Shown here: in pieces, positions 4,038 through 49,740 of the stretch
Numbering within the stretch: the first letter of the stretch is position 1
Layout: every line of letters begins with the position of its first letter
Source of the DNA: Candidatus Aminicenantales bacterium
GTDB taxonomy: Bacteria > Acidobacteriota > Aminicenantia > Aminicenantales > Saccharicenantaceae
DNA: 64,000 bases
Assembly (NCBI GenBank): GCA_049512315.1
Contig: JBEKXF010000010.1
Location: forward strand, 1-64,000
Direction: 5' to 3'
Notes under the pieces: model-generated
Database searches by the model: none
Told to the model about the DNA's origin: nothing
Seen by the model: the letters and a program-made list of their open reading frames with translations, nothing else
Position numbers and translations under genes: made by a program

Positions 4038-4155
4038 TATCGGCGCCGCGTCCGGTTGACTTTTCAGCGCTCCCTCGTCTATATTTTGCCCGCCCGGCGA
4101 TATCAACCCAATGCGGCGTCCTTTCACGCGGACTCCGGCCGGGAAGGAGGGCTCC

Positions 4156-5493
4156 ATGAGTTCGGTCTTTCTGGCCCGGCTGCAATTCGGGCTCACGGCG
4201 GGATTCCACTTCCTCTTCCCGCCGACGACGCTCGGGCTCACCCTCGTCATCCTCATCCTGGAATCCCTTTACCTGCGCAAGAAGGTCGAGATCTACAAGG
4301 ACGTCTCGAGCTTTCTCGTCAGGATCTTGGGCGTCGTGTTCGTCATGGGTGTCGCGACCGGGATCGCCCTCGAGTTCGCCTTCGGCAATAACTGGTCGGC
4401 CTACTCGCGGGCGGTCGGAGATATCTTCGGCGCCCCCCTTGCCGCCGAAGGCGTCTTTTCCTTCTTCCTGGAATCCGTTTTCATCGGCATTCTTGTCTTC
4501 GGACGCCGGCGCGTGACCCCGAAGGTGTACTGGCTCTCGGCCTTCCTGGTCTTTTTTGCCTCCCACCTCTCCGGGCTCTGGATCATCATCGCCAATTCGT
4601 GGATGCAAACTCCTGCGGGGTTCCGGATGGAGGCGGGGCGGGCCGTCCTCACGGACTTTTTCCAGGCCGCGTTCAATCCCTCGACCGTGGTCCGCTTCGT
4701 CCACACCATCCTCGGCGGCTGGATCACCGGGTCGCTCCTCGCGGCGGCGATCGCGGCCTGGTATCTGCTCAAGGGCAAGGTGCGGGAGAAGGCCGATGTG
4801 CTTCTCAAGGCGTCGCTTGCGGTCTTCATCGTCGCGGCCGTCCTTCAGCTTGGGAGCGGCCACGTCCACTCCGTCCAGGTCACCCGGACCCAGCCGGAAA
4901 AGATGGCCGCCTTCGAAGCGCTCTGGGAAACGAGGACGAACGCGCCGTTCACGGTCTTCGGCATCCCGGACGAGAAGGCCGAAAAGACGCGTCTGGCCGT
5001 CCGCGTTCCCGGGTTGCTCAGCTTCCTGGCCGGCTTCGACACCCACACCAAGGTCCTCGGCCTCCATGATTTCCCGACAGAGGAGCGTCCTCCCGTGCTC
5101 CTGCCCTTCGCGGGCTACCACCTCATGATCCTCTTCGGCTTCCTTTTTATCCTGATGGCAGGCCTCGGGATCATCCTGTCTGCCCGGAAAAGGCTCGCGG
5201 ACAGCCGTTGGTACCTCAAGCTCCTGATCTTCGCCATTCCCCTGCCCTTCCTCGCCAACGAATTCGGCTGGATCGCGGCCGAGGTCGGGCGCCAGCCATG
5301 GGCCGTTTTCAGGGTCCTCAGGACCGTTGACGCCGTGTCCAAGGTCGTTCCGGCCGGGGACATCGTTTTTTCCCTGGTCCTGTTCACGGCCATTTATGCG
5401 CTCATCGCCGCGGCCGGAGTCTCGATCATCCTCAAACTCGTCAGGCACGGGCTCGATGAACACCCCGCGTCCGGGCCGCAAGGAGGGGTCTGA
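4156..5493 (+). CDS. cydA: Cytochrome bd ubiquinol oxidase subunit I
   Basis: AAGGAGG RBS; LARLQF..FHFLF, ANSWMQTP, QPEKMAAFE, GWIAAEVGRQPW. Confidence 0.95.
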   Translation: MSSVFLARLQFGLTAGFHFLFPPTTLGLTLVILILESLYLRKKVEIYKDVSSFLVRILGVVFVMGVATGIALEFAFGNNWSAYSRAVGDIFGAPLAAEGVFSFFLESVFIGILVFGRRRVTPKVYWLSAFLVFFASHLSGLWIIIANSWMQTPAGFRMEAGRAVLTDFFQAAFNPSTVVRFVHTILGGWITGSLLAAAIAAWYLLKGKVREKADVLLKASLAVFIVAAVLQLGSGHVHSVQVTRTQPEKMAAFEALWETRTNAPFTVFGIPDEKAEKTRLAVRVPGLLSFLAGFDTHTKVLGLHDFPTEERPPVLLPFAGYHLMILFGFLFILMAGLGIILSARKRLADSRWYLKLLIFAIPLPFLANEFGWIAAEVGRQPWAVFRVLRTVDAVSKVVPAGDIVFSLVLFTAIYALIAAAGVSIILKLVRHGLDEHPASGPQGGV

Positions 5494-6503
5494 TGGAAAC
5501 CTGGGACCTGCTCCGTAACATCTGGTTCATCCTGGTCGGCGTCCTTCTCGCCGGGTATTCCGTATTGGACGGTTTTGACCTCGGCGTCGGCATCCTCTTT
5601 CCTTTCCTGGCCAAGAACGAAGACGAGAAGAAATCTTTGGTCCGGTCCATCGGCCCGGTCTGGGACGGGAATGAGGTGTGGCTGCTCACCGGCGGGGGTG
5701 CCCTGTTCGCGGCGTTCCCCCACGCGTACGCGACCGTCTTCAGCGGCTTTTACCTGGCCCTGATGCTCGTCCTCTTCTCGCTCATCCTGAGGGCCGTTTC
5801 GCTCGAGTTCCGGAGCCACGCCGTTAGGAGCAAAAAGCTCTGGGAGGCGGCCTTTGTGGCCGGAAGCTTCATCCCGGCTTTGCTCTTCGGGGTCGCTGTC
5901 GGGAACGTGGTCGTGGGCATTCCCATCGACGCGCGGATGGAATACGCCGGGGATTTCTTCACGCTCCTCCGGCCGTTGCCGCTCGTCTTCGGACTGCTCG
6001 GGCTGGCTACTTTCCTCCTTCACGGGAGCACGTGGGCGGCGCTCAAGACCACGGGCGAGCTCCAGGCGCGGGCCAGAAAAACGGGCCGGACCGCAACGGC
6101 GGTTCTGGGAGGTTTATTCCTGATTTCCTTTTTCGCCGTCTGGATCTATCTCCCCGAAGCGCTCAAAAGGATTCCGGCGTGGATCTTCTCGGTTCTGGTC
6201 ATCGCGGCCCTGATCCTTCTTCGGCCGGTCTCCAAAAAGGGAAAGGACGGCCTGGCTTTCGCTCTTTCGTCGGCGGTCTTCCTCTGCCTCTGGGGCGTCG
6301 TCGGGGCCATCCAATATCCCCTTCTCATCCGGGCGACCGACCCTTCCCTGAGCCTGACCATCACGAACGCCTCGTCGAGCGCGCTGACGCTCAAGGTCAT
6401 GCTCATCATCGCCCTCGTCGGCATGCCGCTCGTCATCGCCTACACAATTTACGCCTACCGTGTGTTCAAAGGGAAAGTCGGCCTCGACGAATCCGGCTAC
6501 TAA
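5493..6503 (+). CDS. cydB: Cytochrome bd ubiquinol oxidase subunit II
   Basis: LDGFDLGVG, IGPVWDGNEVWL; translationally coupled to cydA. Confidence 0.95.
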   Translation: METWDLLRNIWFILVGVLLAGYSVLDGFDLGVGILFPFLAKNEDEKKSLVRSIGPVWDGNEVWLLTGGGALFAAFPHAYATVFSGFYLALMLVLFSLILRAVSLEFRSHAVRSKKLWEAAFVAGSFIPALLFGVAVGNVVVGIPIDARMEYAGDFFTLLRPLPLVFGLLGLATFLLHGSTWAALKTTGELQARARKTGRTATAVLGGLFLISFFAVWIYLPEALKRIPAWIFSVLVIAALILLRPVSKKGKDGLAFALSSAVFLCLWGVVGAIQYPLLIRATDPSLSLTITNASSSALTLKVMLIIALVGMPLVIAYTIYAYRVFKGKVGLDESGY

Positions 6504-6594
6504 TAGCGAAGGCACATCATTCCGGCGTTGCATCCCTGCCTCATTTCATATATGATACTCACTGACATCGCGACCGGATCATCAGGAGGCCAAC

Positions 6595-8160
6595 ATGAAA
6601 AAGCTGACCGCGATCGCCGGCCTGCTCCTCATCGCCTCGATGGCCTCGGCCCAGACGGCCAAGGTCATGAGCGGTCCCTTCGACGAGGCGCTGGCCCGGG
6701 CCAAAAAGGAAAACAAGCTCATCCTCCTCGATTTCTTCTCGGGTGGCTGAGGGGCCTGCAAACTGCTGGTTCAGCAGTTCTACCACAACCCCAAATACGC
6801 CGATTTCCTCAACAACAACGTCATCCTTTACCGCGCTTCGCGCGGTGACAAGATCGGGGACACAATCTACGAAAAATTCAAAATCCAGGGTACGCCGACC
6901 GAACTCTTTGTCGACAAGGACGGAAACGAAGTCGACTGGATCGTGGGCTACGGCCCTCCCCCCGACAAGTTCTTGGTAAAGGTCCAGAAAGTCCTCGCCG
7001 GCGAAGAGACATACAAGGCGCTCTCCGCGCGATTCGCCCAGGAGCCGACGAACGTCGAAGTTCTCTTCAAGCTCGGCCGGAAGTACAGCTCGCGATTCAC
7101 GCCCGAGATGACGGCCAAAGGCAAGGAGCTTTACCAGAAGGTTATCGCCCTCGACCCCGACGGGAAGGCAGGGTCTTACACCGACGACTACCTCAAGGCC
7201 CAGATCCCCTACACTCAGGGGGCAGAATTCGAATTGGGCCAGGCGAGCATATACGACCGCAAGCCCAACCCGGCGCCCCTACAAGCCTTCATCAAGAAGT
7301 ACCCGGCGAGCGCGCTCGTCAAGAACGCCTACTCCTACCTGAGCTATTACTATGGTTATCAAGCACCCAAAGAAGAGGCGACAAAGTTCTTCGAAGAATA
7401 CTCGTCCAAGTACCCGGATGACCGCAATGCCATCGGCGCCTATGTCGAACGGATCATCAAGGACAAGGAGCCCATCGACAAGGGAATCAGCCTGGCCGAG
7501 AAACTCAAGGAACTGGGCGGCTATCCGCGGAACCCTGAATACCAGCAAAACCTGGCCCAGCTCTATGCCCTCAAGGGCGACCCGGCCAAGGCCGAAGAGG
7601 AATACGGCCAGGACTTCATTGACGGCTACGTCTCGGACGCGGTCAACGCCCTGACGGGCTACGCGAATTTCTGGCTCGAACAAAACAAGAACCTGGACAG
7701 TGTCGAGTCCGCAGCCGACCTGGCCGTCAAAATGGCTCCCGCTTCCCAGCGGTACACGCTCCAGACCGTGGCCGGGATCTACGTAAAGCTGAACAAGACC
7801 GACAAAGCCCTCGCTGTCTACGGACCCGAGTTCATCAAGAAGAACATGGGGGACCAGAGCGTTCTGGCGAGTTACGCGTCCTTCTGGAACCGGCAGGGGA
7901 AGAACCTCGAGAGCGCCCTGGAGGCCGCCCGGAAATCCGTGGAGCTCACCTCCGATTACTACAACAATTACACGCTGGCGAACATCCTGTTCAAAACGAA
8001 GAAGTATGAGGAAGCCCTGGAATACGCGGAGAAAGCGGTCGAGCTCGTCAAGCCCATGGCCGTGAAATACGAGGGCTTTTCCACCCAGCAGTACGAGAAA
8101 CTCGTCAAGGACATCAAGGGCGCTATTGCCGAAGAGAAGGCCCCGGCAATCAAAAAGTAG
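6595..8160 (+). CDS. Exported thioredoxin-fold selenoprotein (UxxC) with C-terminal TPR-like helical repeats, 521 aa, Sec at codon 52
   Basis: AGGAGG RBS, ATG 6595, signal peptide MKKLTAIAGLLLIASMASA; ILLDFFSGG-TGA(6748-6750)-GACKLL; frame stays open through QGTPT (cis-Pro loop) into ORF 6943-8160. Confidence 0.85.
6751..6792 (+). promoter_or_regulatory. Putative bacterial SECIS element
   Basis: Perfect 8-bp stem AACTGCTG(6761-6768)-GTT-CAGCAGTT(6772-6779) starting at the 11th nt after the UGA, G in the apical loop; possible basal GGGG/CCCC pairing. Confidence 0.7.
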
Positions 8161-8164
8161 CCTC

Positions 8165-8206
8165 AAGAGGGAGAGTCCCCTCCGGAGGGGACTCTCCCTC
8201 TTTTTT
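8165..8206 (+). terminator. Rho-independent terminator
   Basis: Long perfect inverted repeat followed by a T-run immediately after the TAG at 8160. Confidence 0.85.
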
Positions 8207-8315
8207 CACCCCGTTTGACTTCCTTCGTCCGGTCCCTTATATTGGCCTTAGGCGTGGGGCAAGGGTTGTTTTCGAGACCCGCCCCCCCTGGGTCTCCCAG
8301 GCCGCAGTGGATGAT

Positions 8316-10356: not shown

Positions 10357-13300
10357 ATGGCACAGCCGGAAACAGGAGCCCAGACGATGGTCGGGAAGCC
10401 CATCGTCCTCATCGTCGATGACGACTTGTCCTACATCGAAAAGCTCCAGCGGGCCCTCCGGGACCAATACGCCGTGCATACCACGACGAGCGGCGTCGAG
10501 GCCATCAAGATCATCAAGGCCCTGCCCGAGGTCCATGTCCTCATCGTCAACGAGGACCTCCCCCGGATGAAGGGGACCGAGCTCCTCCGCTTCCTCCACG
10601 AGATGTTCGACAAATCCGATTCCATCATCAAGATCCTGCTGACGGATTCCGGGTCGAATGGGACGGTCGCCGACCTCGCGAGCTATGGCCGCATCGACTA
10701 TACCTGCGCCAAACCCGCCGACCCGGCCGAGATCCGGCGCAAGGTCGGATTTCTCATCGCCCAGAGGTCCCACGAAAAGCGGACGTCGATGCGGGTGAAC
10801 CTCAACGGCCCTTCGGACATCCGGATCGAGACCGGCGGGCCCGGCGAGGCCAAGGTCATTAATCTCAGCGAAAGCGGAATGTTCCTCCAGACCATGTCCT
10901 TTTTCCCTGAAGGCGCCTCAATTCCGCTGACGATCACCCTTCCCGACGGCCGGCAATACCCCATGAGCGGTCGGATCGTCCGGCAGGATATCGACCAGGG
11001 CGGTGTCGGCGTCGAGTTCCAGACGATCAATGATCAAGGCCGGCGCTCGATCCTCCAGTTCCTGTCCGATTATGTCACGGTCCAGGACCTCGCCGAGCTC
11101 AAGCTCCGCTATCCCTTCCTCAAGACCGACGACATGGTCCTGTTCTCCGACACCTTCAAGATCGAGTCCCTCCTTCGCGAAGCCCTGAGGGGGGGAGTGG
11201 AGATTGCCGTCATCCATTCCGAATCGAGGAATCCCGAGATCCTCGAGTTCTCCGACCTCAAGCCGCCCGCCGTGTGCACTCTCAAGGGGGAAGACCTGAA
11301 CGTCAAGTTCAAGACGTCCAACCTCATCTTTGTTTCCTTCCAGATCGGCTACGCCACCTACAACTTCGAGACCATGGTCTCCCGGATCACGCCTGACGGC
11401 GGGAAGCTCGTCTGCCTTTATCCGAGGGTCATGTTTTACTCGGAGAAGCGGACCGAAAAAAGGATCAGTCCGAACGGGAACCTCCGGGTCGAGATCCCCC
11501 TGCCGCCTCCCTTCAACAGCAGCATCACGGGCCGGATCACCGACATCAGTCCCGGCGGAGTCAGCTTCATCGCCGACTCCCACGCCCAGGTCCTGCTGAA
11601 AGGCACGCCCCTCGAGACCCTGTCCATCATGAACGGCGACCGGCTTCTCTGGAAGGAAAACGGAGAGGTGCGCTACGTGGCCAGGGCCGGAGAGGGGACC
11701 CTGTACGGGATGAAATACGGCATCCAGTTCGGGATCGGCCGGGTGAACATCCAGTCTGTCCAGGCGCCCGAGCTTGATTACGAGCATTCTGATGAAGGTC
11801 CTCCGGGTCCGTCCATGATCTTCCCAAGCACGAGCTTGGGCGGTGAACTCAGTAAGCTCGTCCACATGCCGCCGCAAGTCCTCCGCATCGAGAGCCGGCG
11901 CGGCGAGGAGATCGTCGGCCTTCTGAATTCTTCCCTTCCCCTGGACGAGAAGCCCGTCCCCGTCGTCGTCGTTCCCCCCGCCTTTGGAAAAACCAAGGAA
12001 GTCCTCTTCGGCCTGGCCCTGACTCTCGTCCAGAACTTCCGCGCCCTTGGAAAACCGCTGGCGGTCATCCGCTATGACGGCATCCGCAGAAAGGGCGAGA
12101 GCCATAAGGACCCCGAGGCTTCCGAGCCTCCCTACGAAATGCTGAAGGCCAGCACCAGCCAGGGAGCTGAAGATATTAGAACCGTTCTGGACTGGCTTCA
12201 ACTCAACTCCAAGATCAAGGCGAGCTCGGTCATCCTTGTCACGTTTTCCCTTTCGGCCCTGGAAGCTCGGGTCGTCCTGAGAGATGACGTCTATCGCCGG
12301 CAGATCAATTATTGGATATCCTGCATGGGCTCCCTGGAATTCAGGGACATGATGAACCGGATCAACTGCGGGTTGGATGTCCTCGAACAGTATCAACTCG
12401 GCATCAAACTGGGCATCTATCCCATCCTGGGCAATCTGATCAGCCACGAGTTCTATGCCGCCGATGTCATCGCCAATGCCGTGGGGACCCTGGAGCAGGC
12501 CCGGGAGGACATGCGCCACCTCGATCTCCCGATCACCTGGATCTACGGGCAATACGACCAATGGATCAAATCGGAATTCATCCGCGACGTGATGAGCGTT
12601 CAGGCCAACGCCCTTCGCGAAGTGATTGCCGTCCCTATCGGGCACAACGCCCGGACGTCCCAGGAAGCCCTCCGGTTGTTCGGCACGATCACGTCACTCA
12701 TCCATCGCTCCCTGCACAAGACGATGATCCAGCCGATCCTTCCCTCGAAGAAGGACATGGAAGTCATGCGGCGCTCTGAGAAGGACAGGCTCCCGCCCCG
12801 GAACCTCAAGAACAAGAAAGCCTATTGGCACCATTACCTTGTCGGTGAGAATAACCTCCTCGGCTTCGACATCATGGCCATGTCCGACGATTATCAGCAG
12901 CTGATGGAGGACCAGCTTCAGGCCCTCGAGCTTGAGTCCACCGACCGTCTCCTCGACCTCGGGGGAGGGACCGGAAACTTCGTCGAGCACCTCATCGAGA
13001 GCGGCCGCGACCTGCCCGCCCAGATCACCATCGCCGACCTGATCCCGGACGCTATTAAGCAGGCCCGGGAAAAACTCCTCTCCCGCTACGACATCCTCAG
13101 CGAGCCGGGACGCCTCGACTTCCTGGGCCTGGACCTCGAGATGAGCCGGTTCCTGCCTGTCGGCCGCTTCCTCGAAGGGGAAGTCGGGAGCTTCGAGGAG
13201 ATGGCCGACAAAATCGAGAACTTGACGCTCGACAGCGCCATCAAGATCCAGGCGGCCTATTCCCCCCGGCTCCACAGGATTCTCCGGGGCGAGCCCATCA

Positions 13301-13902
13301 CTCCGTCGGCCGACGACTGGCTGAAGAGGCAGTTCGACCTTCATGAATACCGGACCATCGTCGACTTCAACCAGGCCGCCCGTTATGTCCGCCGGCTGAC
13401 CAATAAGAAGCCCCCGTTCCGCAGGCTGGTCCTGCCCGGATTTCTCGAGGGGAATCTCCATCTCCCTTTCAAGGCGGGCTGGTACAACAAGGTCCTCATG
13501 AGCCTTGTCCTCTCCTACATCTTCGACCCGGCCGAGACCCTCCGCGAGGTCCGACGGATCATCAGGCCGGGGGGCCGGCTCGTTCTGTCGAGCATGCGTC
13601 CGGACACCGACGCCTCGGGGCCCTACACGCGGCTCCTGGAGAAAATCGAAACGATGCCCGAGGAAGCTCTGCCGCCGGACTGGCCCAAGGCCCGGCTTCT
13701 CGATTCTATGCGTTCTTTCCTCAACGACGCTCAGGCCCTTTCAGACTTCGAAGAAGCGGGGACTTTCGATTTCTTCGACCCGGACAAGCTCGACGGCCTG
13801 CTCGAAGAAGCCGGCTGGAAAAGAATCCGGATGATCCCGAGTTTCGGAGATCCCCCCCAAGGTTATATCGTCCTGGCAAAGGCGAGGGAAACCAATGACT
13901 AG
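10357..13902 (+). CDS. Multidomain protein: atypical receiver - PilZ - YcgR-like/PilZ - LuxD-like acyl-thioesterase - SAM methyltransferase
   Basis: IVDDD..IVNEDLP..AKP; RTSMR/NLSESG and RTEKR/DISPGG PilZ motifs; RYDG..GES, TFSLSA, YDQWIK, IGHN; LLDLGGGTGN. Confidence 0.75.
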   Translation: MAQPETGAQTMVGKPIVLIVDDDLSYIEKLQRALRDQYAVHTTTSGVEAIKIIKALPEVHVLIVNEDLPRMKGTELLRFLHEMFDKSDSIIKILLTDSGSNGTVADLASYGRIDYTCAKPADPAEIRRKVGFLIAQRSHEKRTSMRVNLNGPSDIRIETGGPGEAKVINLSESGMFLQTMSFFPEGASIPLTITLPDGRQYPMSGRIVRQDIDQGGVGVEFQTINDQGRRSILQFLSDYVTVQDLAELKLRYPFLKTDDMVLFSDTFKIESLLREALRGGVEIAVIHSESRNPEILEFSDLKPPAVCTLKGEDLNVKFKTSNLIFVSFQIGYATYNFETMVSRITPDGGKLVCLYPRVMFYSEKRTEKRISPNGNLRVEIPLPPPFNSSITGRITDISPGGVSFIADSHAQVLLKGTPLETLSIMNGDRLLWKENGEVRYVARAGEGTLYGMKYGIQFGIGRVNIQSVQAPELDYEHSDEGPPGPSMIFPSTSLGGELSKLVHMPPQVLRIESRRGEEIVGLLNSSLPLDEKPVPVVVVPPAFGKTKEVLFGLALTLVQNFRALGKPLAVIRYDGIRRKGESHKDPEASEPPYEMLKASTSQGAEDIRTVLDWLQLNSKIKASSVILVTFSLSALEARVVLRDDVYRRQINYWISCMGSLEFRDMMNRINCGLDVLEQYQLGIKLGIYPILGNLISHEFYAADVIANAVGTLEQAREDMRHLDLPITWIYGQYDQWIKSEFIRDVMSVQANALREVIAVPIGHNARTSQEALRLFGTITSLIHRSLHKTMIQPILPSKKDMEVMRRSEKDRLPPRNLKNKKAYWHHYLVGENNLLGFDIMAMSDDYQQLMEDQLQALELESTDRLLDLGGGTGNFVEHLIESGRDLPAQITIADLIPDAIKQAREKLLSRYDILSEPGRLDFLGLDLEMSRFLPVGRFLEGEVGSFEEMADKIENLTLDSAIKIQAAYSPRLHRILRGEPITPSADDWLKRQFDLHEYRTIVDFNQAARYVRRLTNKKPPFRRLVLPGFLEGNLHLPFKAGWYNKVLMSLVLSYIFDPAETLREVRRIIRPGGRLVLSSMRPDTDASGPYTRLLEKIETMPEEALPPDWPKARLLDSMRSFLNDAQALSDFEEAGTFDFFDPDKLDGLLEEAGWKRIRMIPSFGDPPQGYIVLAKARETND

Positions 13903-25621: not shown

Positions 25622-26998
25622 TCAGAAAACATGGACCTTCGACGGGAACCCGTCCGGGTCGTCAAGTTCCATCAGGTGATAAAGCGAAAATTCGTACATC
25701 CGCCCCATGGTGATGTCCGAAGGCGAAAACGGGAAAGCCAGGTTCCCCGCCGTGGAGATCCGGCCGGGATAGCCGTAGTGAAGCAGCGTAGACCGGGTCA
25801 CGGAAAGCAGGGCCTCCGCCTCCTCCGGCGTCCGGCCCAGGGCCTCGATGAGGATGCCCAGCTCGTGGGCCGGCGCGTCGCGGTGGGGCTCCAGCTCGCC
25901 CATGACGCCGTCCTTGCCGTACACGTGGAAGAAGACGCGGCCGCGGTTGCCTTCTTTTTTCAGCATGGCCCGGACCTGCCCCTCCACGCTCTTCAGGATC
26001 GCGTCGATCCCCGCGATCATGATGGGGTCCCTGACGCCGGCGATGGTGATGGCCCGGTAGCCGGTGGGGCGGGCGCCCTCGAGCTTGATGAAGTACTTCT
26101 CCGTAGGGACGAACCGGCTGCCGCGGACCTCGACCCGGCCGCCGCCGATGTCGGTGAAAGAGCAGCCGGTGAGGTCGATCTCGCCGCCCGGCCCGGGCAG
26201 ATGATAGGGGTCCGTCTTTTCATAAAGGGTGTGGGCGGCCGTGGATTCGGGGGTGAAGCGCCGGGCGGGCGAAAGGGCCTCCAGGATGAAGGAATCCTGC
26301 CTCAGGGTCCCCAGGGCGCAGTCCGACCCGGACCCCGGCGTCGCGGCGATGGCCGCGCACTCGAGGATCTTGCCGAGATGGAGGGCCAGGCCCGGGTTGT
26401 AGCCGCGCATGATCGGCAGGGCGGCGAAGACGGCCGGGTCATAGCACCGGCCGGCGAGGACGACGTCGCATTTTTTCTTGAGCAAACGGATGATCGGCTC
26501 GATGCCCATCTGGCCGACGATGTATTCGGTCTCGAGAACGGCTTCGCGAGTCAGGTTTGGAACGAACGCCAGCGGCTTGACCCTGCCGCGCCTCATGGCC
26601 CTGAGAACAGTTTCCTTCTTGAAGTCGGCGTAGACGACGCCGAGGCGGAAATGGAGCTTCTCCTCCCGGGCGATCTCCCGGATGATCTCCAGGCACCACT
26701 CCGTGTGGGGCCGCGCCCCCGAGCCGCCGGCCGACCCGACGACGACGGGGATCTTTCGGCGGACACCTTCGGTGATCATGTACCGCAGGTCCCTCTTCAC
26801 CCCCGCCCGGCTGGTGAAGGACTTGCCGACGCCGAGGTAGTAGGGGCCGGGGTCGGTCGAGCCCGCGTCGGCCGCGATGAGGTGCGGCTTCCGGCGGAGG
26901 CCGTTCCGGAAGGACGATTCGGGGAACCCGTAGCCGAGGATGGCCGTGGTCGACAGGATCCGGAACTCGGGGAGTGTTTTTCCTCGGGGTTTATCCAT
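25622..26998 (-). CDS. Acyclic terpene utilisation AtuA family protein
   Basis: ILGYGFP, DAGSTDPGPYYLG, GKILECAA, AAHTLYEK. Confidence 0.8.
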   Translation of the reverse strand: MDKPRGKTLPEFRILSTTAILGYGFPESSFRNGLRRKPHLIAADAGSTDPGPYYLGVGKSFTSRAGVKRDLRYMITEGVRRKIPVVVGSAGGSGARPHTEWCLEIIREIAREEKLHFRLGVVYADFKKETVLRAMRRGRVKPLAFVPNLTREAVLETEYIVGQMGIEPIIRLLKKKCDVVLAGRCYDPAVFAALPIMRGYNPGLALHLGKILECAAIAATPGSGSDCALGTLRQDSFILEALSPARRFTPESTAAHTLYEKTDPYHLPGPGGEIDLTGCSFTDIGGGRVEVRGSRFVPTEKYFIKLEGARPTGYRAITIAGVRDPIMIAGIDAILKSVEGQVRAMLKKEGNRGRVFFHVYGKDGVMGELEPHRDAPAHELGILIEALGRTPEEAEALLSVTRSTLLHYGYPGRISTAGNLAFPFSPSDITMGRMYEFSLYHLMELDDPDGFPSKVHVF

Positions 26999-28238
26999 TG
27001 GACTTCACTTTCAGGACCTGGATCGTCCTTTCCATCTCATTATTCACAATCATGTAGCCCTCGTCAAAACCCATCCCCGGCTTGGCCAGCATGCGCATCG
27101 GCCGGGCCGCCAGGGCGACGTGGACGCAGGCGACGGCCGAGACGTCCGTCTCGTTGCAGGTGCCGCCCTGGTAGGCCTCCATGCCGCGGTCCTTGCAGTA
27201 AAGGACGCTCTCGACCACGTTCTGGATCCCGCCGAGGTCGGGCGTCTTGATCTGGACCATATCGCAGCAGGCGGCGTCCGTGAACTCACGGATGTCCTCC
27301 AGGGTGTTGCAGTGCTCGTCGGCCACGATCTTGACGGACGACCCGAGCGCCTTGAGCCGCCGCCGGATCCGGCCGAGGGCCTCGATCTGGCGGGGCTTCT
27401 CGTCCATGTCCACGGGGCCCTCGATGTAGAGGGGGAAGCCCCCGGCGTCCTTTTCGAGGGAGGCCATGTAGTCGGCGATCTTGTCCATGTCGTAATCGAA
27501 GGCGATGCCGATCGTGCCGTAGACGTCGATGTGGAGGTCCGGGTGGTAGGACGGCCGGCCCCGGAGGGCGACGATGCGCCGGGAGAGCCAGCGGATATAG
27601 GTCCGGAGCTTCTCGCCGCGGCGGCCGAGCTTCTCCTCGACGTTATTGATGAGGGCGTGGGGCAGGACGTCGACTTCTTTGAGGATCATCTTGTCGGCGT
27701 TGGTGTAACGGTCGTCGCCGCTCTGGCCGAAGATCGGCACCCGCCTGGCGATGACGGGCAGGCCGTACTCCTCGCAGACGACCTCGCATTTCAGCTTGTG
27801 CTCGGCTTTGGCCCGGGCGTCGAGGAAGGCCTGCGACAGGCCGTAGCGGATCGCCGTGTGGAGGCGCCGCCCCCGGAAGGTCATCTCCTCGAAGCGCCCT
27901 GCCAGGTCGCGAAAGCGGCCGACGGCGAGGCCTTCGAGCTTCGGGGCGATGGTCTTCTTCAGGAAAGGCAGGTAGGCCCCGGCGAGGAAAAGGGGATCGC
28001 GGCCGCCGACTCCCGAATACTGGACCGCGGCGCAATCGCCCACGGCGACCTGTCCGTCCTCGAGGAGGAGAAGGACAGAGACACACTCCCCCGCGACCCG
28101 GATGCGGGGGAATCCCGGCGTCACCGGCTTTGCCTTGTAAATGAAACCGTCGTGGGCCGCGTTCTTCTTGATGGCCCTCTGGTCGTCGAAGAAGAAGGCG
28201 GATTTTCCCGGAGCGAAGATCGCTTTCTTGATTTTCAT
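26991..28238 (-). CDS. mal: Methylaspartate ammonia-lyase
   Basis: [59 protein letters not shown]. Confidence 0.95.
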
Positions 28239-29683
28239 CTCGGCCTCCCGATCAATTTTCCCTTGCTGACGGCGTAGATGTCGTCGGTCACCATCTGGAA
28301 CGATATCTCCCGCCCCTCGGCCCTGGCCCGCTCGCCGAGCTTCTCCCGGTGATAGGCTAGGATGTCGTTGGTCAGCGGCAGGTTCCCCTTGTGGAAGATG
28401 CGGAGGAAGCCCTCGTTGTCGCGCATGGGCAGCACCTTGCCGAGGTTGTAGATGGAGGGGGCGAAGGGGACGTCGAGGACGCCGGCCTGGAACGCGGCCA
28501 CCGTCCCGGCGGCGATGTCGCCGCCGCCGAGCTCGTAGACCTTGTCCACGAGCGAGCGGACCTCGCGCTTGATGATCTCCACTTCCCTCCGGATCGTCAG
28601 GCTGTCGAACAGGCGCTGGTCGGCGAGCATGCTCACGATCTGGCGAGTGGCCCGGAGCCCCTGGGCGTTGGCCTCCTTGGTCGGGATGCCCATGGCCTCG
28701 TGGGGGCTCTTGACGATGATCTTCTCGGGCCTAGCGAAGGCGGCCACGACGGCCCCCCAGGCGATGACCGAGAAGGCCTTGGCCTCGTCCTCGGGGAAGC
28801 CGCCCATCCACTGATGGAAGACGGTCGTGAATTCGTAGTCCTCGAAAGCGGCCCGCCGGAAATATTCCTCGGCGAGCTCGTTGAGGGACGTGACGGCGGC
28901 GATATCCTGGAGGATGTTCCCGGCCTGACCGTACCCGAGGGTGATGGACTTGACGCCCTGCTCGAGGGCCAGCAGCCCTTCGATGATGCCGATCGCATGG
29001 CTGATGAACGGCGGGACCAGGGTCCCGGTCAGGGGCCCGAACGGCTCCCGGTTGATCCGGACGCCCTGCTCTTCGTAGAGGCCGACCAGGCGGTCCACGT
29101 ACTGCCAGTCCTTGATCGACTTCTCGAGCGGCACTTTCTTGGCGTAGGGGATGTTGTAGGAGATCCCGCCGCCCTCGAAGCTCGTGAAGCCCGCGGCCAG
29201 GGTAATCTCCGCAAGGAGTCTCGCGTCCGGCGTCCCGTGGCGGACCTGGATGGGGCTGACGACGCTGTCGACGACACGCCGGCAGCCGTCCAGCCCGTGG
29301 TTGACGGCCGGGAAGCCGTTGAGGAGCGAGGTCCCGGCGCCCTGGGACTTTTCGATCCCCTTCTGGGCTTCTTCATACCGGTTCTGCCGCGTGTAGGCGT
29401 CGATCGTCGTCGGCAGGAGGTCGGCCTCTCCCTCGGTCTCGAGATAGCGGAGGAGCTTGATGTGCTCGTCGACGAGGGCCACCCCGGCCCGCGGCTGGAG
29501 GAGGATGAGGCCCTTCTCCCGGGCGTTCTTCATGACCGCGGAGAACCTCTTCTCCTCGGGGACCGTCCGGTGATAGCGGACGCCGTCTTCGATCCTCACT
29601 CCCCGGCCCGTCGGCCAGGTCGCGAGCACCTCGCTCCGGATGGCGTCGAATTCCTGGGGTTGAACCTTGGCATTCTTGATCAT
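28235..29683 (-). CDS. glmE: Glutamate mutase epsilon (large) subunit
   Basis: [54 protein letters not shown]. Confidence 0.95.
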
Positions 29684-29687
29684 CTCG

Positions 29688-31100
29688 TTATCCTTTGTTC
29701 GGCAATTCCGTCAGTCTGGAAAGGGCCAGGGCCACCGCCTCGACGGGATGGTCCTCGGCCAGGTTCCCGACGAGCGGGAAAAGCGTCCCGCCGTCCGCGT
29801 AGAAAACGGGCGCTGCGGGGGCGAGCTTCAGCTCTTCCCCCCGCGAGGCCAAGCGTCTGAGCGGCGCCCGCATGACCGTGCTCTCCCGGCACCGCGAGAG
29901 ATAGCCCCCGCTGCCGATGACGGCCTTGACCCGCCGGAGATCCTTGCCTGTCTGGACGAAGACCTTGCCCTGGGGCGTATAGGCTTCGCGCCAGACGCCG
30001 ATGTGACGGAGGGCCGCGTGAAACACGCAGGCCTCGGCCAGGATCCGGTCGAGCGTCTTCTCAGTCTCCCCCGTCGGGAGATAGCCGGTGTCGGCGGAGA
30101 CCTTGGCCACGAAGCTCTCCATGGCCGGCTCCTGAAGCCCGGCCCGGCCGAGCCCTTCCAGGATGTCCTCCCGCGCGGAGTCCCAGAGTGTCCGGGCCGA
30201 CACGCGGAGGCCAAGGTCGCCCTCGACGGTGCGCTTGACCCTGGGCTCGCGGACCCCCTTGAGAACAACCGTGTCCGTTTCCAGGAAGGATTCCGTATTG
30301 GAATAGACGTCTGTCGTGGCGCCGCCCATGTCGATGACGCAGATGTCGTCCCAGTCCGGCCGGACGAGCGGGATGGCCGCGACGAGCTCGTAGACGCCGA
30401 GAGGCGTCGGCTTGGGCCGCGTGCCCAGGGCGTGAACGATATCGGCCAGCCCGCGACCGGCGACGATCCGGTCGAGAAAAATGTCGCGGATCTTTTCCCG
30501 GACCGGTTCGAGGTTCATCTGGCCGATCTCCGGCATGAGGTTTTCCGCCACGAAGACGCTCTTCCTCCTCAGGATCTTCGCGACCCGGGCGGCGGCGGCC
30601 CGGTTCCCGGCAAAAATGACCGGCGTCTCGACCTCCGAGGCCGCCAGGCGCTTCGCGTTCTCGAGGAGGTAGGCGGTGTTCCCGCCGTCCGTCCCGCCGG
30701 CGAGAAGGATGATATCGGGCGGGGCGGACTCGAGGTCGGTGACATCCTCTTCGGTCAGCGAGAATGAGAAGGCCTTGACGACTTTCCCTCCGGCGGACAT
30801 GGCCGCGAGCTTCGCCAGATGGAGGGTCAGGTCGGGGACGAGACCGATGGCGGCGATGGCCAGGCCGCCCTTGGCCGAGGACGAGAAATAGACCGGGACA
30901 TCGCCCGGCACTTCGCCGAGCGTCGTCCCCGGCGGGAGTCCGAGGAGCGCTGTTAGGACCCGGAGAAATCCGTTCGCCAGGCCGTCCTGGGTGGTCGGGG
31001 TCTCCCGCATCTCGAGCACGGCGGACGCCGGGCCGTCGAGGGCGAAGAGCGCCCCCTTCGTCCAGGTGGAGCCGATATCGATGCTGACGGCTTTTCTCAT
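29688..31100 (-). CDS. glmL: Glutamate mutase accessory/reactivating protein GlmL (MutL)
   Basis: [42 protein letters not shown]. Confidence 0.92.
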
Positions 31101-31131
31101 GATCGAACCGCCCTCCGGCGACGCTTGGGCC

Positions 31132-31572
31132 TCATCCCTCCCCGAAGCTCGTCCGGATATCCTGGCGCAGCAGCCCGGCGGCCTGCTTGAGGTCGGAATC
31201 GGCGGAAAAGACACGGTCGAACCCCATGTTGCGGTATTTCGCCTCGACCTCGGCAAAGGGGGTTTTTCCGACGACCAGGTTCCCCCCGGCATATAGGATG
31301 ATCTTGTCCAGCCCCTTTTCGACACAGAGGTCGCGTAGGCCCTGGCAGTCGATCTCCCCGTGCCCGTAGAGCGACGAGATCAGGATGGCCCTGGCGTCGG
31401 TCTCGATGGCCGCGTCGATGAACTCGAGCGGGGAGACCATGACCCCGAGGTTCACGACGCGGAATCCCTCGCCGGTGAAGAAGACTTCCAGGATCCTGTT
31501 GCCGACCGAGTGACAGTCGGCGCCTATGACTCCGAGGACGACGGTCGGGCCGGACATGTTCGTCTTCCCCAT
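31132..31572 (-). CDS. glmS: Glutamate mutase sigma (B12-binding) subunit
   Basis: GADCHSVGN (DxHxxG), SSLYGHG, GGNLVVG; start could alternatively be 31557. Confidence 0.93.
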   Translation of the reverse strand: MGKTNMSGPTVVLGVIGADCHSVGNRILEVFFTGEGFRVVNLGVMVSPLEFIDAAIETDARAILISSLYGHGEIDCQGLRDLCVEKGLDKIILYAGGNLVVGKTPFAEVEAKYRNMGFDRVFSADSDLKQAAGLLRQDIRTSFGEG

Positions 31573-32561
31573 CACCGGTTGAGGAGCTGGCCGATGCGCT
31601 CGTCCACGTGCAGGAGCGAGCCGCGCTCGATCTGATAGTCGAAGGGGATGACCTTGCCGCCCCGCTCGGTGAACGCCTGGACGGCCGAGACGTTCTCCCG
31701 ACGCCTCTGGAGGAGGTGTCCGGGCGGCACGAAAACGACGTCCAGGCTTTCCAGGAACCGGGGGAGCTTCTCTTCGTCGCGGATGAAGAGATGGGCCACA
31801 GGGCCGGAGGCGAGGTCGAGGTCCTTGAGCCTCTCGGTCACGATCCGGAGGAAATATTCGCTCTGGCAGACGACTCCCAGGCGCTGGCCGCGGCCGAGCC
31901 CGGCCATCTCGATGATCGTTTCCTGGCTCGGGGACACGGCCACCTGAAGGATCCTGGACTGGAGGTTGGGCAGCCTGCCCAGGAGCTCGGAGTAGTGGTT
32001 GGTCGTCGTCAGGATAAGGTCGAAATCCTTCAGCCGCTCTTCCGGTTTGGGGTCGGCCGCCAGCTCGTCGAGGAGCATGGGCGTCACCTTGATCCGGGAC
32101 AGGAACCCGAGCTGCCTTTCGAAGATGGCCAGGGCCTCAGGGACGTCATCGACGGCGGCCACGTGAAAATTCTCCAGGCGCTCCTCGCGCTCCATGATCT
32201 TAAGGTCAACGATGGTCTGGACCTCCCGATAAGAGAATTTCATGTTCTTGAGCTCGTCGAGAAGGCGGTCGATGAGGGCCACCGCGCGCTCTTTCCGGCC
32301 TGCCGGGAAAACGTCCTGGCGCGACGAGACGAAACTGCCGCGGCCCTGCACCGCCTCGATGATCTTGTCGCGGGACAGGGCCTCGTAGGCCCTCTTGATC
32401 GTCCCCCGGGCGATCTTGAGCTCGGCCGCGAGGTCCCTTTCGGCCGGAAGCTTGTCGCCCGGTTTGAGCTCGCCGCTCCGGATGAGAGACGTGACCTGCT
32501 GGATGATTTGCCTGTAGGCGGGAGCTTGGCTTTGCTTGTCGATGCTGATTTTGGTTGACAT
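31572..32561 (-). CDS. GntR family transcriptional regulator with long C-terminal effector domain
   Basis: PAYRQI..GELKPGDKLPAERDLA..RGTIKRAY..QGRGSFV. Confidence 0.92.
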   Translation of the reverse strand: MSTKISIDKQSQAPAYRQIIQQVTSLIRSGELKPGDKLPAERDLAAELKIARGTIKRAYEALSRDKIIEAVQGRGSFVSSRQDVFPAGRKERAVALIDRLLDELKNMKFSYREVQTIVDLKIMEREERLENFHVAAVDDVPEALAIFERQLGFLSRIKVTPMLLDELAADPKPEERLKDFDLILTTTNHYSELLGRLPNLQSRILQVAVSPSQETIIEMAGLGRGQRLGVVCQSEYFLRIVTERLKDLDLASGPVAHLFIRDEEKLPRFLESLDVVFVPPGHLLQRRRENVSAVQAFTERGGKVIPFDYQIERGSLLHVDERIGQLLNR

Positions 32562-42954: not shown

Positions 42955-43581
42955 ATGGAAAAACGATCCGACAAGAAAACTCCCGGCGGCGTCAGCCGCA
43001 GGGATTTCATCAAGGGCGTCGGCACCGGAGCGCTCGGGACGGCCGTCCTGCCCGGCCTCTTCGCCCAGGACGCGGTCCAAACAAAAAAGGGCCGTGTCCC
43101 GGTATTCGACAAGAAAACGATCACCCTGACCGTCAACGGCACCCCCCAGGCCGTCCTCGTCAGAGCGAACGAAACCCTGCTCGACCTCCTCCGCGACCGG
43201 CTCGAGCTCACCGGGACGAAAAGGACGTGCGACCGGGGCGAGTGCGGCGGCTGCACGGTCCTCCTCGACGGGTCCCCCGTCTACGCCTGCATGCTCCTCG
43301 CCATCCGGGCGGACGGGAAGAAGGTCACCACCATCGAGGGCCTGGCCCGGGGCGAGAAGCTCCATCCCGTCCAGGAGGCCTTCGTCGAGCACGACGGCTA
43401 CCAGTGCGGTTTCTGCACGCCGGGCTTCATCATGACGACGTCCGCCTTCCTGGTGAAGAACCCCTCACCGACCCCCGACGAGATCAGGATGGCCCTCTCC
43501 GGGAATCTCTGCCGGTGCGGCAACTACGCCAGGATCTACAAGGCCGTGGCCGCCGCCGCCGAAAAGATGAAGGGGGCGTGA
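42955..43581 (+). CDS. Tat-exported 2x[2Fe-2S] subunit of xanthine dehydrogenase-family enzyme (PaoA-like)
   Basis: SRRDFIK twin-arginine; CDRGECGGC, QCGFCTPG, NLCRC. Confidence 0.92.
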   Translation: MEKRSDKKTPGGVSRRDFIKGVGTGALGTAVLPGLFAQDAVQTKKGRVPVFDKKTITLTVNGTPQAVLVRANETLLDLLRDRLELTGTKRTCDRGECGGCTVLLDGSPVYACMLLAIRADGKKVTTIEGLARGEKLHPVQEAFVEHDGYQCGFCTPGFIMTTSAFLVKNPSPTPDEIRMALSGNLCRCGNYARIYKAVAAAAEKMKGA

Positions 43582-43582
43582 C

Positions 43583-45739
43583 ATGGAATACAAGTACATC
43601 GGGAAATACACGCCTCGAGTCGACGGCCGCAAGATCGTCACCGGGAAGGCCCAGTACACGCACGATATCAGGCTCCGGGACATGCTCATCGGGAAGATCC
43701 TGAGATCACCGCACGCCTCGGCCGAGGTCGTCGCGATCGACCTCGGACCGGCCAGGAGCCTCCCCGGGGTCATGGCCGCGATCCCCCTGGCCCAGGGGAA
43801 GGTCCACTACGCCGGCGAGCAGGTCGCGGCCGTGGCCGCCGTCGACGATAGGACCGCGGAAAAGGCCCTCGCCCTGATCAAGGTCGACTACAAAGTCCTC
43901 CCGGCCGTCGTCGACTGGGAAAAAGCCGGGGAGCCGGGCGCCCCCCAGGTCCGCGACGCAAAGCCGAACGTCGAGAAGTTCAGCGAGGCCGCCCGCGGCG
44001 ACGTCGAGAAGGGCTTCAAGGAAGCGGACGTCGTCCTCGAACGGACCTACCGGACGAATTTCGAGATCCACCACCCGGCCGAGACGCACGCCAGCGTCGC
44101 CTCCTGGGACGGCGACCAGCTCACCGTGTACGATTCGACCCAGGCCGTCCACGGGGTCCACGACGGCCTGGCCCGGGCCCTGAAGATGCCCGCGGCCAAC
44201 GTGACAGTCATCAAAAGGTATATGGGCGGAGGCTTCGGGAGCAAGCTCGGCCTCAACGAGCACACCGTCGTCGCGGCCCGGCTGGCAAGGGAAGCGGGAC
44301 AGCCGGTCAAGATCGTCCTCAGCCGGCGCGACAACTCCCTCTGCGTCGGCTATCGCCCCTCCTCCTGCCAGACCTACAAGGCCGGCGTGAAGAAGGACGG
44401 CACCCTGACGGCCCTGAGCCTCCTCAATTACGCGAGCGGCGGGACGGATTTCGGGGACGAGGTCCTCGAGCCGACGGTCGACCTTTACAAGTGCTCTAAC
44501 GTGAAGGTCGAGGAGTTCTCCGTTTTCACCAACACCGGCGCCCAGCGGGCGACCCGCGCCCCCGGTCATACCCAGGGCATGTTCGGCCTCGAAGGGCTCA
44601 TGGACGAGCTGGCCGCGGCCATAGGGATGGACCCCCTCGAGCTCCGGAAGAAAAATTATTCCACCAAGAACCAGGGCGACACCGGACTCCCCTACTCGAC
44701 GAAGGGGCTCGACAGATGCTACGAGGCCGGGGCCAGGGCCATCGGCTGGGAGCATCGGAACAAACGGCCGGGCGAAGGCAGCGGCCCGATTCGCCGCGGC
44801 CTCGGCATGTCCTCGAGCATCTGGTGGGGGACCGGAGTGCCCGGGACGCTTGTCGACCTCGTGCTTTTCCCGGACATGAGCGTCGAGGTCGTCTGCGGGA
44901 CCCAGGACATCGGTACGGGGACGCGGACCCACATGGCCGTCGTCGCGGCCGAGACGCTCGGCTTCGAGCCGAAGGAGATCACGATCAAGATCGGCAATTC
45001 CGACTCCCCGTGGGCGCCGGCCTCGGGCGGCAGCGTGACGACGCCCTCGGTGGCCCCGGCCGTCCGTGATGCGGCCCTCAAGGCCGTCGAGCGGCTGAAG
45101 CAGGTCGCCGCCAGGAAGCTCAAGGCCAGGCCCGAGGACATCACGATGGAGGGCCGGGCGTTCGCCGTCAAGGGCGCGGACGATAAGTCCGTTCCCTTCG
45201 CCGACGTCTATCGAGACCTCCGCCGGGAGACCGTTTTCCACGGGGAGAGGTCCGATTTTCCCGAAGACAAGTACGCTTTCAACACGTTCGGGGCCCACTT
45301 CGCCGAAGTCGAAGTGGACATCGAGACGGGCAAGGTCCGCGTCCTCAGGTACGCGGCCGCCCACGACAGCGGCCGGATCATCAACCGGCAGACGGCCGAG
45401 AGCCAGGTCATCGGCGGGATCACGCAAGGACTGAGCGCCGGGCTCTTTGAGGAACGGGTCATGGATTCGACGACGGGCCATCCCGTCAATCCCAACCTCC
45501 GCGACTACAAGATCGCAACGTCGCTCGACATCCCCGAGATCACCACGATCTTCGTGGACGTCGTCGACGACAAGCTTAACAACCTGGGCGCGAAGGGGCT
45601 GGGGGAGCCGCCCCGCATCCCGAGCTCGGCGGCCATCGCCAACGCCGTGTACAACGCGATCGGCGTCCACGTCCGGGAGATCCCGATGACGCCCCAGCGG
45701 GTCCTCCAGGCCCTCAAGCGGAAGGAGGCCGGGTCATGA
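43583..45739 (+). CDS. Molybdopterin-binding subunit, xanthine dehydrogenase family (PaoC-like)
   Basis: GGGFGSK, RAPG, GTQDIGTG, AKGLGEPP. Confidence 0.92.
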   Translation: MEYKYIGKYTPRVDGRKIVTGKAQYTHDIRLRDMLIGKILRSPHASAEVVAIDLGPARSLPGVMAAIPLAQGKVHYAGEQVAAVAAVDDRTAEKALALIKVDYKVLPAVVDWEKAGEPGAPQVRDAKPNVEKFSEAARGDVEKGFKEADVVLERTYRTNFEIHHPAETHASVASWDGDQLTVYDSTQAVHGVHDGLARALKMPAANVTVIKRYMGGGFGSKLGLNEHTVVAARLAREAGQPVKIVLSRRDNSLCVGYRPSSCQTYKAGVKKDGTLTALSLLNYASGGTDFGDEVLEPTVDLYKCSNVKVEEFSVFTNTGAQRATRAPGHTQGMFGLEGLMDELAAAIGMDPLELRKKNYSTKNQGDTGLPYSTKGLDRCYEAGARAIGWEHRNKRPGEGSGPIRRGLGMSSSIWWGTGVPGTLVDLVLFPDMSVEVVCGTQDIGTGTRTHMAVVAAETLGFEPKEITIKIGNSDSPWAPASGGSVTTPSVAPAVRDAALKAVERLKQVAARKLKARPEDITMEGRAFAVKGADDKSVPFADVYRDLRRETVFHGERSDFPEDKYAFNTFGAHFAEVEVDIETGKVRVLRYAAAHDSGRIINRQTAESQVIGGITQGLSAGLFEERVMDSTTGHPVNPNLRDYKIATSLDIPEITTIFVDVVDDKLNNLGAKGLGEPPRIPSSAAIANAVYNAIGVHVREIPMTPQRVLQALKRKEAGS

Positions 45740-46709
45740 GAGAGTTCAGGATCGCCCAGCCGAGAACGGTCGACGAGCTGGCGGCCCTCCTGGCCGAGAC
45801 CGAGGAGAAAACGGCCCTCATGGCCGGCGGCACCGACCTCATCGATGAGCTCAAGAGCGGCGTCGCCGGGCCGGACATCGTCGTGGACATCCAGGGGATC
45901 GAGGCGCTGGCCGGGATCGTCCCGGACAAAAACGGGCTGAGGATCGGGCCCATGACCAGGGTCGCGGCCTTGGCCGAGGACGCCGCCGTGGCCCGGGATT
46001 ATCCAATCCTGAAGGAGGCCGCGCTATCGCTGGCGACGCCCCAGCTCCGGAATGTGGGCACCGTCGGCGGGAACCTCTGCCAGAGGCCGCGCTGCTGGTA
46101 TTATCGCGACCCGGAGGTCGTCTGCCGCAAGAAGGGCGGGGCCCTCTGCTTCGCCTTCAGGGGCCGGAACAAGTACCACGCGATCATGGGCGGGAGCGGC
46201 TGTTACATCGTCTACCCCTCTGACCTCGCCCCGACCCTGATCAGCCTCGGCGCCAAGATCACGATCGGAAGCGCCAAAGGCGACAAGGTCGTGCCGCTCG
46301 AGGATTTCTACAAGCCCCCATTCGTCAACGTGGAGAGGGAGAACGTCCTCGCCGCGGGCGAATTCCTGAAGGACATCCGCGTCCCGGCGCCGAAGCCGGG
46401 CCAGAAGGGGACCTACGTCAAGCTCAAGGAGCGCGGGACGTGGGATTTCGCGGTCGCGTCGGCGGCGGCGACCGGCGTCGTCAAGGGCGGCGTTTTCTCC
46501 GAGATCGCGATCATCGCCGGCGGCCTGGCCCCCATTCCCTGGCGGATGAAGGCGGCCGAAGACATCCTCCGCGGCAAGCCCGTCACCGAGGCGCTGGTCA
46601 GGCAGGCCGCCGACGAGGCCCTCAAAGCTGCGACGCCGCTGGCCGAGAACGCCTACAAGATAGATCTCGCCGCCGCGGCGATCAGGCGGGCCGTCCTCGC
46701 CCTCTTAGA

Positions 46710-46713
<4 letters not shown>
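45736..46713 (+). CDS. FAD-binding subunit with Cys-rich [4Fe-4S] insert (PaoB-like)
   Basis: AGGTDL, RNVGTVGGNLCQRPRCWYYR..CRKKGG..C..GC. Confidence 0.9.
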
Positions 46714-47761
<1,048 letters not shown>

Positions 47762-47765
<4 letters not shown>

Positions 47766-48364: not shown

Positions 48365-48432
48365 CTTGACAGCGCTTTTTTCGGACCTTCATCATCGCCG
48401 TTACACGATGTCACGTCTATGGTCCTGCTCCC

Positions 48433-49581: not shown

Positions 49582-49740
49582 GCGGTCCTCCTGGCGGAAT
49601 GAATGTCAAGGAACGTTCAAGCAGCCGGAATGGTAATTCGGCCCGGGCGGCGGTGTCAAGGCGCGCTTCCCCCCTCCTCGCTTCCCCCTTTGTCCTCGGG
49701 CCGCATCTGTGCTATATATCGCTCGAAGAGAGGTGCGGGA

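Follow-up and report, generated by a model that had tools for sequence, protein, structure and literature searches.

We describe a gene of a Candidatus Aminicenantales bacterium in which an in-frame UGA at codon 52 almost certainly specifies selenocysteine (Sec), as judged by comparative sequence analysis. The gene is intact, and these comparisons indicate that it belongs to a real, conserved and mis-annotated selenoprotein family of exported thioredoxin-TPR proteins. The explanation that we find best overall, and consider probable, is an exported Sec reductase/isomerase with a TPR client arm, co-inherited with selA and selD. Positions (Table 1) are those of the window, the whole 64,000-nt stretch of DNA analysed; G, C and L numbers are our handles for genomes, contigs and loci, and G000 is the source genome.

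Table 1. Positions of the gene, its elements and relevant neighbours (window coordinates unless a contig is named)
Feature	Position	Strand	Remark
cydAB (cytochrome bd), upstream neighbour	4111..6503	+	neighbour by local synteny; probably outside the system
Ribosome-binding site AGGAGG	6584..6589	+	5 nt upstream of ATG
Full gene, 521 aa, UGA read as Sec	6595..8160	+	ATG at 6595
Signal peptide, general secretory type	6595..6651	+	MKK, hydrophobic core, A-S-A before Q20; by eye
Thioredoxin-fold domain, residues about 20-136	6652..7002	+	PF13098, PF13899
Active site U52-G-A-C55	6748..6759	+	TGA = 6748-6750
Bacterial SECIS upper stem, 8 bp	6761-6768 paired with 6772-6779	+	18 nt after UGA
SECIS GUU loop	6769-6771	+	3 nt
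GTPT, thioredoxin cis-Pro loop position	6889..6900	+	xTPT consensus in alignment; cis state inferred from family
TPR-like alpha-solenoid, about 20 helices, no Cys	7012..8139	+	domain matches, model
Intrinsic-terminator-like hairpin and T run	8184..8211	+	after stop; consensus match only
VKOR fused to DsbA-like thioredoxin domain (CPDC)	54603-55874		domain search
Stand-alone exported DsbD N-terminal domain	G000:C1:8527-9180 (L001:2925-3578)	-	PF11412, CxxxxC pair

Reading frame, codon 52 and SECIS hairpin

According to the initial annotation, the gene begins with a strong ribosome-binding site and an ATG at 6595, upstream of the ORF track that starts at 6943, carries a TGA at the first Cys position of a CxxC motif and continues through GTPT to 8160. 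The sequence bears this out. AGGAGG is seen at 6584-6589, and the ORF list begins the gene only at GTG 6943 (405 aa); the frame 6595-8160 comprises 521 codons with a single internal stop, the TGA of codon 52 (6748-6750; residue context LILLDFFSGG*GAC, with U-G-A-C at codons 52-55), followed by GTPT at residues 99-102 and the stop codon TAG at 8158-8160. Most orthologues likewise have a GGAG-type site ahead of this start, and full-length orthologues within the order are 505-549 aa long. The protein database entry (P0002) is exactly the same truncated 405-aa product. When UGA sites were screened for read-through genome-wide, codon 52 was the top match with a neighbouring Cys, so that its occurrence is not due to chance. 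Sequencing error, a concern raised at the outset, was addressed with independent contigs: among the rows listed in this comparison, beyond which there were 103 weaker difference rows, those of two runs from other studies (X3 record 7 and X4 record 9) span the codon, retain the TGA and show 0 differences. The best-matching sequencing runs are peat metagenomes, with no RNA run among the matching runs listed, and the named close relatives are mostly labelled Ca. Aminicenantes or Aminicenantales.

The initial annotation had also named the Sec machinery and the identity of codon 52 in homologues as points to be checked. The machinery proved complete: selA, selD and selB lie in one cluster on contig C1, each above its profile cut-off, and a tRNA-Sec gene lies on contig C17 of the same genome. 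As to the homologues, codon 52 is either TGA or Cys. TGA is found in the orthologue loci examined and, across 201 Aminicenantales genomes, in 148 of the 150 matches listed, the other two not covering the codon; 27 weaker matches of the order fall outside those 150. Metagenomes yielded at least 127 matches in 108 distinct contexts, retrieved with a pattern that required the hairpin and left the third codon base open, and all 127 read TGA, with no TGG or TGC among them. Within another family of the phylum, the orthologues of G233 and G173 (selA found) carry TGA and those of G223 and G253 (selA not found; genomes 90% and 88% complete) carry TGC/TGT, that is, Cys, at 54-62% identity across the domain. 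The codon persists even in orthologues and paralogues that are as little as about 30% identical, and the coding sequence to either side of it is conserved. A quick tree showed clustering, with 3 changes as against 17.5 after shuffling; it does not order the events.

The UGA is followed by a hairpin of -16 kcal/mol. Among 35 distinct sequences, 92.9% of cells are paired, and changes on both sides are seen in 5 of the 8 pairs. The first G of the loop is invariant (35/35) even though the residue encoded there may be V, G or D. Every slid control does less well than the helix; the shuffle test is inflated by the relatedness of the sequences. For bacterial SECIS elements, the consulted portion of PMC13188914 gives a loop of 3-9 nt with G among its first two positions, an upper stem of 4-16 bp, a spacing of 16-37 nt and an MFE <= -7.5, and the present hairpin (GUU loop, 8 bp, 18 nt, -16 kcal/mol) falls within these values on all four counts. 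Rfam gave no match in the window. Our SECIS pattern search was specific to this family and blind to other selenoproteins; a codon-bias table drawn from 58 sequences was set aside as partly circular, these sequences having been chosen by the hairpin pattern.

Could the UGA be read as Trp, Cys or Gly, by a variant code or a special tRNA, to give a protein without selenium? All four site-covering database relatives among the 120 listed do show W. However, these four proteins come from contigs of 1.4-2.3 kb and probably, as the simplest account, reflect gene calling under code 4; the genome uses TGA more than any other stop, in 483 of 892 long genes, no UCA-anticodon tRNA besides the tRNA-Sec was called, and the metagenome matches offer neither TGG nor TGC. 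We therefore regard this reading as highly improbable. The commonness of TGA as a stop, the Sec machinery, the conserved TGA, the SECIS hairpin and the Cys orthologues together make error or an altered code very unlikely. Were the TGA a genuine stop, or the result of a pseudogene lesion or of faulty sequencing, with only a TPR fragment being made, this would suit the database labels of stand-alone TPR proteins for the downstream fragments (116 of the 120 matches listed do not cover the site), but this reading can be dismissed given the conserved codon, the coding sequence on both sides, the covarying hairpin and the independent contigs that agree on TGA.

Architecture and comparison with known proteins

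The initial annotation's proposal of an exported UxxC thioredoxin-TPR selenoprotein agrees with the predicted architecture, in which a signal peptide, PF13098, U-G-A-C and a TPR solenoid are all present. The signal peptide lacks a twin-arginine motif and is conserved across orthologues; distant orthologues (L012-L015, L031) have a lipobox-like Cys. When the read-through translation was searched, Thioredoxin_2 (PF13098) matched residues 36-126 above its cut-off (E 3.7e-11), and TPR families matched close to the C-terminus. Residues 52 and 55 are the sole Cys/Sec positions of the protein. The AlphaFold model, built with 74 sequences (mean pLDDT 93.8), shows a thioredoxin fold followed by about 20 helices. 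Its catalytic domain is nearest to DsbH (2ju5; Z 16.7, rmsd 1.9, 115 aligned), with many ordinary thioredoxins (Z 14-15) within about 2 Z units of that match and DsbD-gamma (1vrs) at Z 14.1. Foldseek and VIA returned generic TPR and thioredoxin matches only, none of them to the whole protein. Domain search of the window gave no match of the protein to the DsbA family, and the protein weakly matched DsbD (NF001419) in its C-terminal part.

The protein is thus of a broad kind already known, the thioredoxin-fold UxxC selenoprotein. The thiol:disulfide interchange selenoprotein (WP_011366075.1) has the same Thioredoxin_2 domain (PF13098) with UxxC and a SECIS in the coding region; by description, the present protein would be set apart by its signal peptide and its 375-residue TPR solenoid. 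Other selenoprotein families with a related thioredoxin domain are the Trx7/PDZ (seleno)protein NF041199, which is CxxU with a PDZ domain, and TsoB (NF045694), a rhodanese/DsbD fusion with other Sec motifs; scores against these two were 19-54 bits, as against cut-offs of 300 and 805. None of the NCBIfam (seleno)protein families of June 2026 exceeded its cut-off for this protein or four relatives, the best match of this protein being TsoB (40.7 of 805 bits). The families of the selenoprotein-neighbourhood paper were compared through NCBIfam.

Among Cys-based proteins, CnoX/YbbN is alike in joining an N-terminal thioredoxin domain to a C-terminal TPR domain, and its combination of holdase and redox logic is, by analogy, plausible here too. 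As described in the part of PMC8129009 consulted, CnoX has two five-helix TPR subdomains and hands clients to cytoplasmic GroEL/DnaK, whereas the present protein is larger, has about 20 helices, Sec and a conserved signal peptide (judged by eye); no CnoX entry occurred among the sequence or fold matches listed. Chlamydia DsbH (PDB 2ju5) is alike in its catalytic fold and export and, like other DsbH/DsbD-gamma-like reductases, is exported and combines a thioredoxin fold with a dithiol-type site of the xxxC form, as found here. By contrast, it is single-domain and Cys-only, and the DsbH family NF043050 gave a score of 22.4 against a cut-off of 190. Signal peptide, Thioredoxin_2/7 and TPR tail also occur together in exported Cys thioredoxin(-TPR) proteins from Bacteroidota and further phyla (PDB 2kuc; Atlas clusters); a profile match to one of them extended over 358 columns at 98.6% probability. 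They differ in having WCxxC, about 40% domain identity or less and, mostly, a shorter chain or tandem thioredoxin domains. Such Cys relatives, which have all three elements, are widespread and uncharacterised. Related exported Cys proteins, P0122 among others, have two or three tandem thioredoxin domains in a PDI-like layout.

Shorter UxxC thioredoxin-TPR relatives (about 340-440 aa; L012-L015, L031-L033 and L120) occur in other Acidobacteriota families; they have a hairpin with a GAY loop, and some have lipoprotein-type signals. Two orthologues with 71-75% identity and the same neighbours, L036 (CAZGJS010000001.1) and L040, are found in records labelled Eubacteriales and Terriglobales, which are probably mislabelled or misbinned.

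The literature searched held no description of an Aminicenantes selenoprotein, a TPR selenoprotein family or a periplasmic DsbD-linked selenoprotein. The table of 119 selenoprotein families in a 2026 review, which classes selenoproteins by architecture, has no TPR entry, and the review makes no mention of Acidobacteriota or Aminicenantes. Aminicenantes go unmentioned in the consulted portions of deep-Sep, the ISME J 2016 survey and the Group 4 hydrogenase paper, as does TPR in that of deep-Sep, and the BSepDB supplement, as far as consulted, has no Aminicenantia row; in the online BSepDB, the sequences may be filed simply as thioredoxins. The architecture is missing from the selenoprotein inventories in the portions examined, though it may be listed there by a generic name.

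Co-distribution with the Sec trait

Across the 201 Aminicenantales genomes, the gene and selA were found together in 78, the gene without selA in 2, selA without the gene in 8 and neither in 113, where a gene match was counted at E < 1e-30 and selA above its cut-off; 10 weaker matches were not counted. Since the genomes are related, this two-by-two table counts few independent losses. Whole genera are without both gene and selA (0/23 in g186), and close orthologues showed no Cys version. The eight genomes with selA only, all of them 85-91% complete and in 130-510 contigs, gave no strong match, two of them having weaker relatives. The pattern indicates that the family was gained and lost together with selA/selD across the order. 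The two are also linked in position: the gene directly follows selD in G427, G367, G489, G469 and G378, and several further genomes have it no more than about 12 kb from selA. Up to eight copies occur per genome, often in tandem, with TGA in each copy examined. Loci L084 (G306:C81) and L085 (G404:C15) are tandem arrays of four paralogues, all with TGA, whose motifs are U-G-G-C, U-P-S-C, U-G-A-C and U-G-S-C; a thioredoxin-reductase-like gene adjoins. At L126 and L127 (G333:C86, G404:C23) there are longer paralogues that run on for about 670-680 codons beyond the TGA, a length that suggests an extra C-terminal domain.

The usual sustainers of Sec use, according to the consulted portion of PMC13188914, are FdhA, frequently the sole selenoprotein, and SelD as an alternative. 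Here, an internal TGA was found in SelD of one in 86 genomes (G423) and in none of the 150 FdhA-type matches listed (264 further), which include Sec-positive genomes with true FdhA. FdhA and SelD thus both being Cys forms, the case fits neither usual anchor. MvhD was without a stop in 147 of 148 matches, the remaining one being partial, and Prx/TlpA had TGA in none of 118, in 22 Sec-positive genomes.

Within the source genome, sequence screening points to the gene as the sole convincing selenoprotein found. Its SelD is a Cys form; the molybdopterin enzymes, Prx/TlpA and other thioredoxins have no internal stop; and MvhD, yqeB and selU were not found, selU being found in none of the 21 genomes searched for it. 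A search for GrdB/PrdB (0/101) carries no weight, as its control was also silent. All UGA sites of this one genome, which is 96.6% complete, were screened by coding potential, nearby Cys and hairpin geometry, and candidates were judged by eye; the remaining ones look like operon junctions or true stops. In simulation, the screen recovered 219 of 224 sites in large and 45 of 54 in small proteins with a nearby Cys, as against 1372 of 1675 in large and 129 of 327 in small proteins without one; given the low recovery in the latter case, it may have passed over small proteins whose Sec stands alone. We consider it fairly likely that the gene is the sole or dominant Sec client.

Neighbourhood and proposed function

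The recurrent neighbour of the gene across families is the sel cluster. At its head in the source genome is the stand-alone exported DsbD N-domain gene, which coordinate comparison places directly upstream of selA in all 34 selA-positive genomes of the family and in 8 others; in G427 it lies beside the thioredoxin-TPR gene. It persists in Sec-less relatives (22 of 23 in genus g186), and is therefore not specific to the thioredoxin-TPR selenoprotein. The DsbD/CcdA transmembrane domain (PF02683) was not found in G000 (96.6% complete) or five congeners; it is present in 129 of the 201 genomes of the order. A PF13386 match in G000 was rejected as a conduit, since it is a His-rich membrane protein without a Cys pair. 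The genome also holds ccsA/resB-like cytochrome c assembly genes (G000:C54:1216-3416) and several multiheme proteins, while no CcdA/DsbD membrane domain was detected, which leaves no evident heme-site reductant.

Several other features of these regions may be recorded. SelD of the source genome (G000:C1:5760-7088; L004:1369-2697, minus strand) has an N-terminal extension with five Cys (CICNPKEPCPC...C.C), also seen in G427, which may be a module that binds metal or selenium. Next to the tRNA-Sec gene is an integrase/resolvase-like region (G000:C17, about 44700-49600, from ORF text); the tRNA-Sec gene lies away from selAB and may serve as an integration site. The window further contains a methylaspartate cluster (25622-32561; glutamate mutase, methylaspartate ammonia-lyase), a xanthine-dehydrogenase-like Mo hydroxylase cluster (42955-48364; no yqeB was found in the genome) and, at 10357-13902, a gene, kept downstream of the thioredoxin-TPR gene in the family, for a 1181-aa protein in which receiver, PilZ, acyltransferase-like and methyltransferase domains are fused.

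In thioredoxin motifs the first residue is the nucleophile and the second resolves, and DsbD N-domains exchange disulfides with thioredoxin folds. DsbH is described, in the consulted part of PMC5193440, as a reducing oxidoreductase resembling DsbD-gamma. From the DsbH-like fold, thioredoxin chemistry and DsbD N-domain exchange taken together, we infer a periplasmic disulfide reductase/isomerase whose TPR arm binds clients and whose partner is the DsbD N-domain, a mechanism that we judge reasonably likely. UGA 52 is almost certainly recoded by SelB and the hairpin just downstream; the chain would be exported unfolded via the general secretory pathway and fold in the periplasm. There, the U52 selenolate would attack disulfides or oxidised cysteines of envelope proteins and C55 would resolve the mixed intermediate, while the TPR solenoid would hold the client or partner. 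The protein would then act as reductase/isomerase and, through this arm, as chaperone, and would represent the thioredoxin-TPR layout in an exported form that uses selenium. On genomic evidence, its likeliest redox partner would be the exported DsbD N-domain of the sel operon, with electrons coming from CcdA or full DsbD where present. The lack of a DsbD/CcdA conduit for re-reduction in the genus is the main gap in the reductase reading, and the U-G-A/S/G-C dipeptide does not discriminate a reductase from an oxidase.

This gap would vanish if the selenoprotein were an oxidase or a scavenger of peroxide or oxygen stress, recycled by VKOR-DsbA or acting beside cytochrome bd, for no reducing conduit would then be needed. 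The VKOR-thioredoxin fusion encoded in the window, which likely represents an oxidative folding pathway, could be counted in its favour, as could cydAB, found upstream in part of the family: cydA and/or cydB precede the gene in G000, G207, G334 and G402 of the same family and at loci L040 and L043. However, this adjacency is absent at L036, L037, L038, L041 and L089 and at 13 of 13 loci from other families or G378; being kept in only part of the family, cydAB was set aside as a functional partner. Of the role suggested by the initial annotation, envelope redox fits, but oxygen defence, which had been deduced from cydAB, is weakened by this distribution. The linkage that is kept is to DsbD_N and the sel genes, and the nearest folds are DsbH and classical thioredoxins, with no match to the DsbA family. 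An oxidase or scavenger is in our view unlikely.

Still less probable is that the selenoprotein handles envelope selenium or metal, with Se/S species being reduced or carried by it on behalf of the Sec pathway. Such a role would explain the position of the gene after selD and near selA, and would accord with the extra Cys-rich segment of SelD. But if the protein is the sole Sec client, the loop would serve only itself, and neither selU nor yqeB was found. That a sole client should lie in a cluster with the sel genes has a precedent in FdhA (in the part of PMC5029168 consulted) and needs no such role, and the 375-residue TPR arm and up to eight paralogues per genome point to protein clients.

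Returning to the exported reductase/isomerase, we tentatively entertain a wider scheme, on balance somewhat doubtful: the whole Sec apparatus (selA, B, C and D) would be kept for the exported thioredoxin-TPR family alone, without a selenium enzyme of energy metabolism; lineages losing Sec would lose the gene rather than revert to Cys; and the protein would form a periplasmic relay with the stand-alone DsbD N-domain, fed, in a genus without DsbD/CcdA, from another electron source.

Gene callers split this architecture in two in hundreds of records. The Sec trait here follows an envelope protein-folding/redox factor, not FdhA or SelD, which makes these bacteria a clean case for why Sec is kept, for which related genomes offer a natural Sec/Cys pair, and prompts one to ask how anaerobes of peat and sediment deal with a selenol in their periplasm. 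In this order of uncultured anaerobes, Sec use appears to be anchored by the gene, which may be the main reason that these bacteria keep their Sec machinery.
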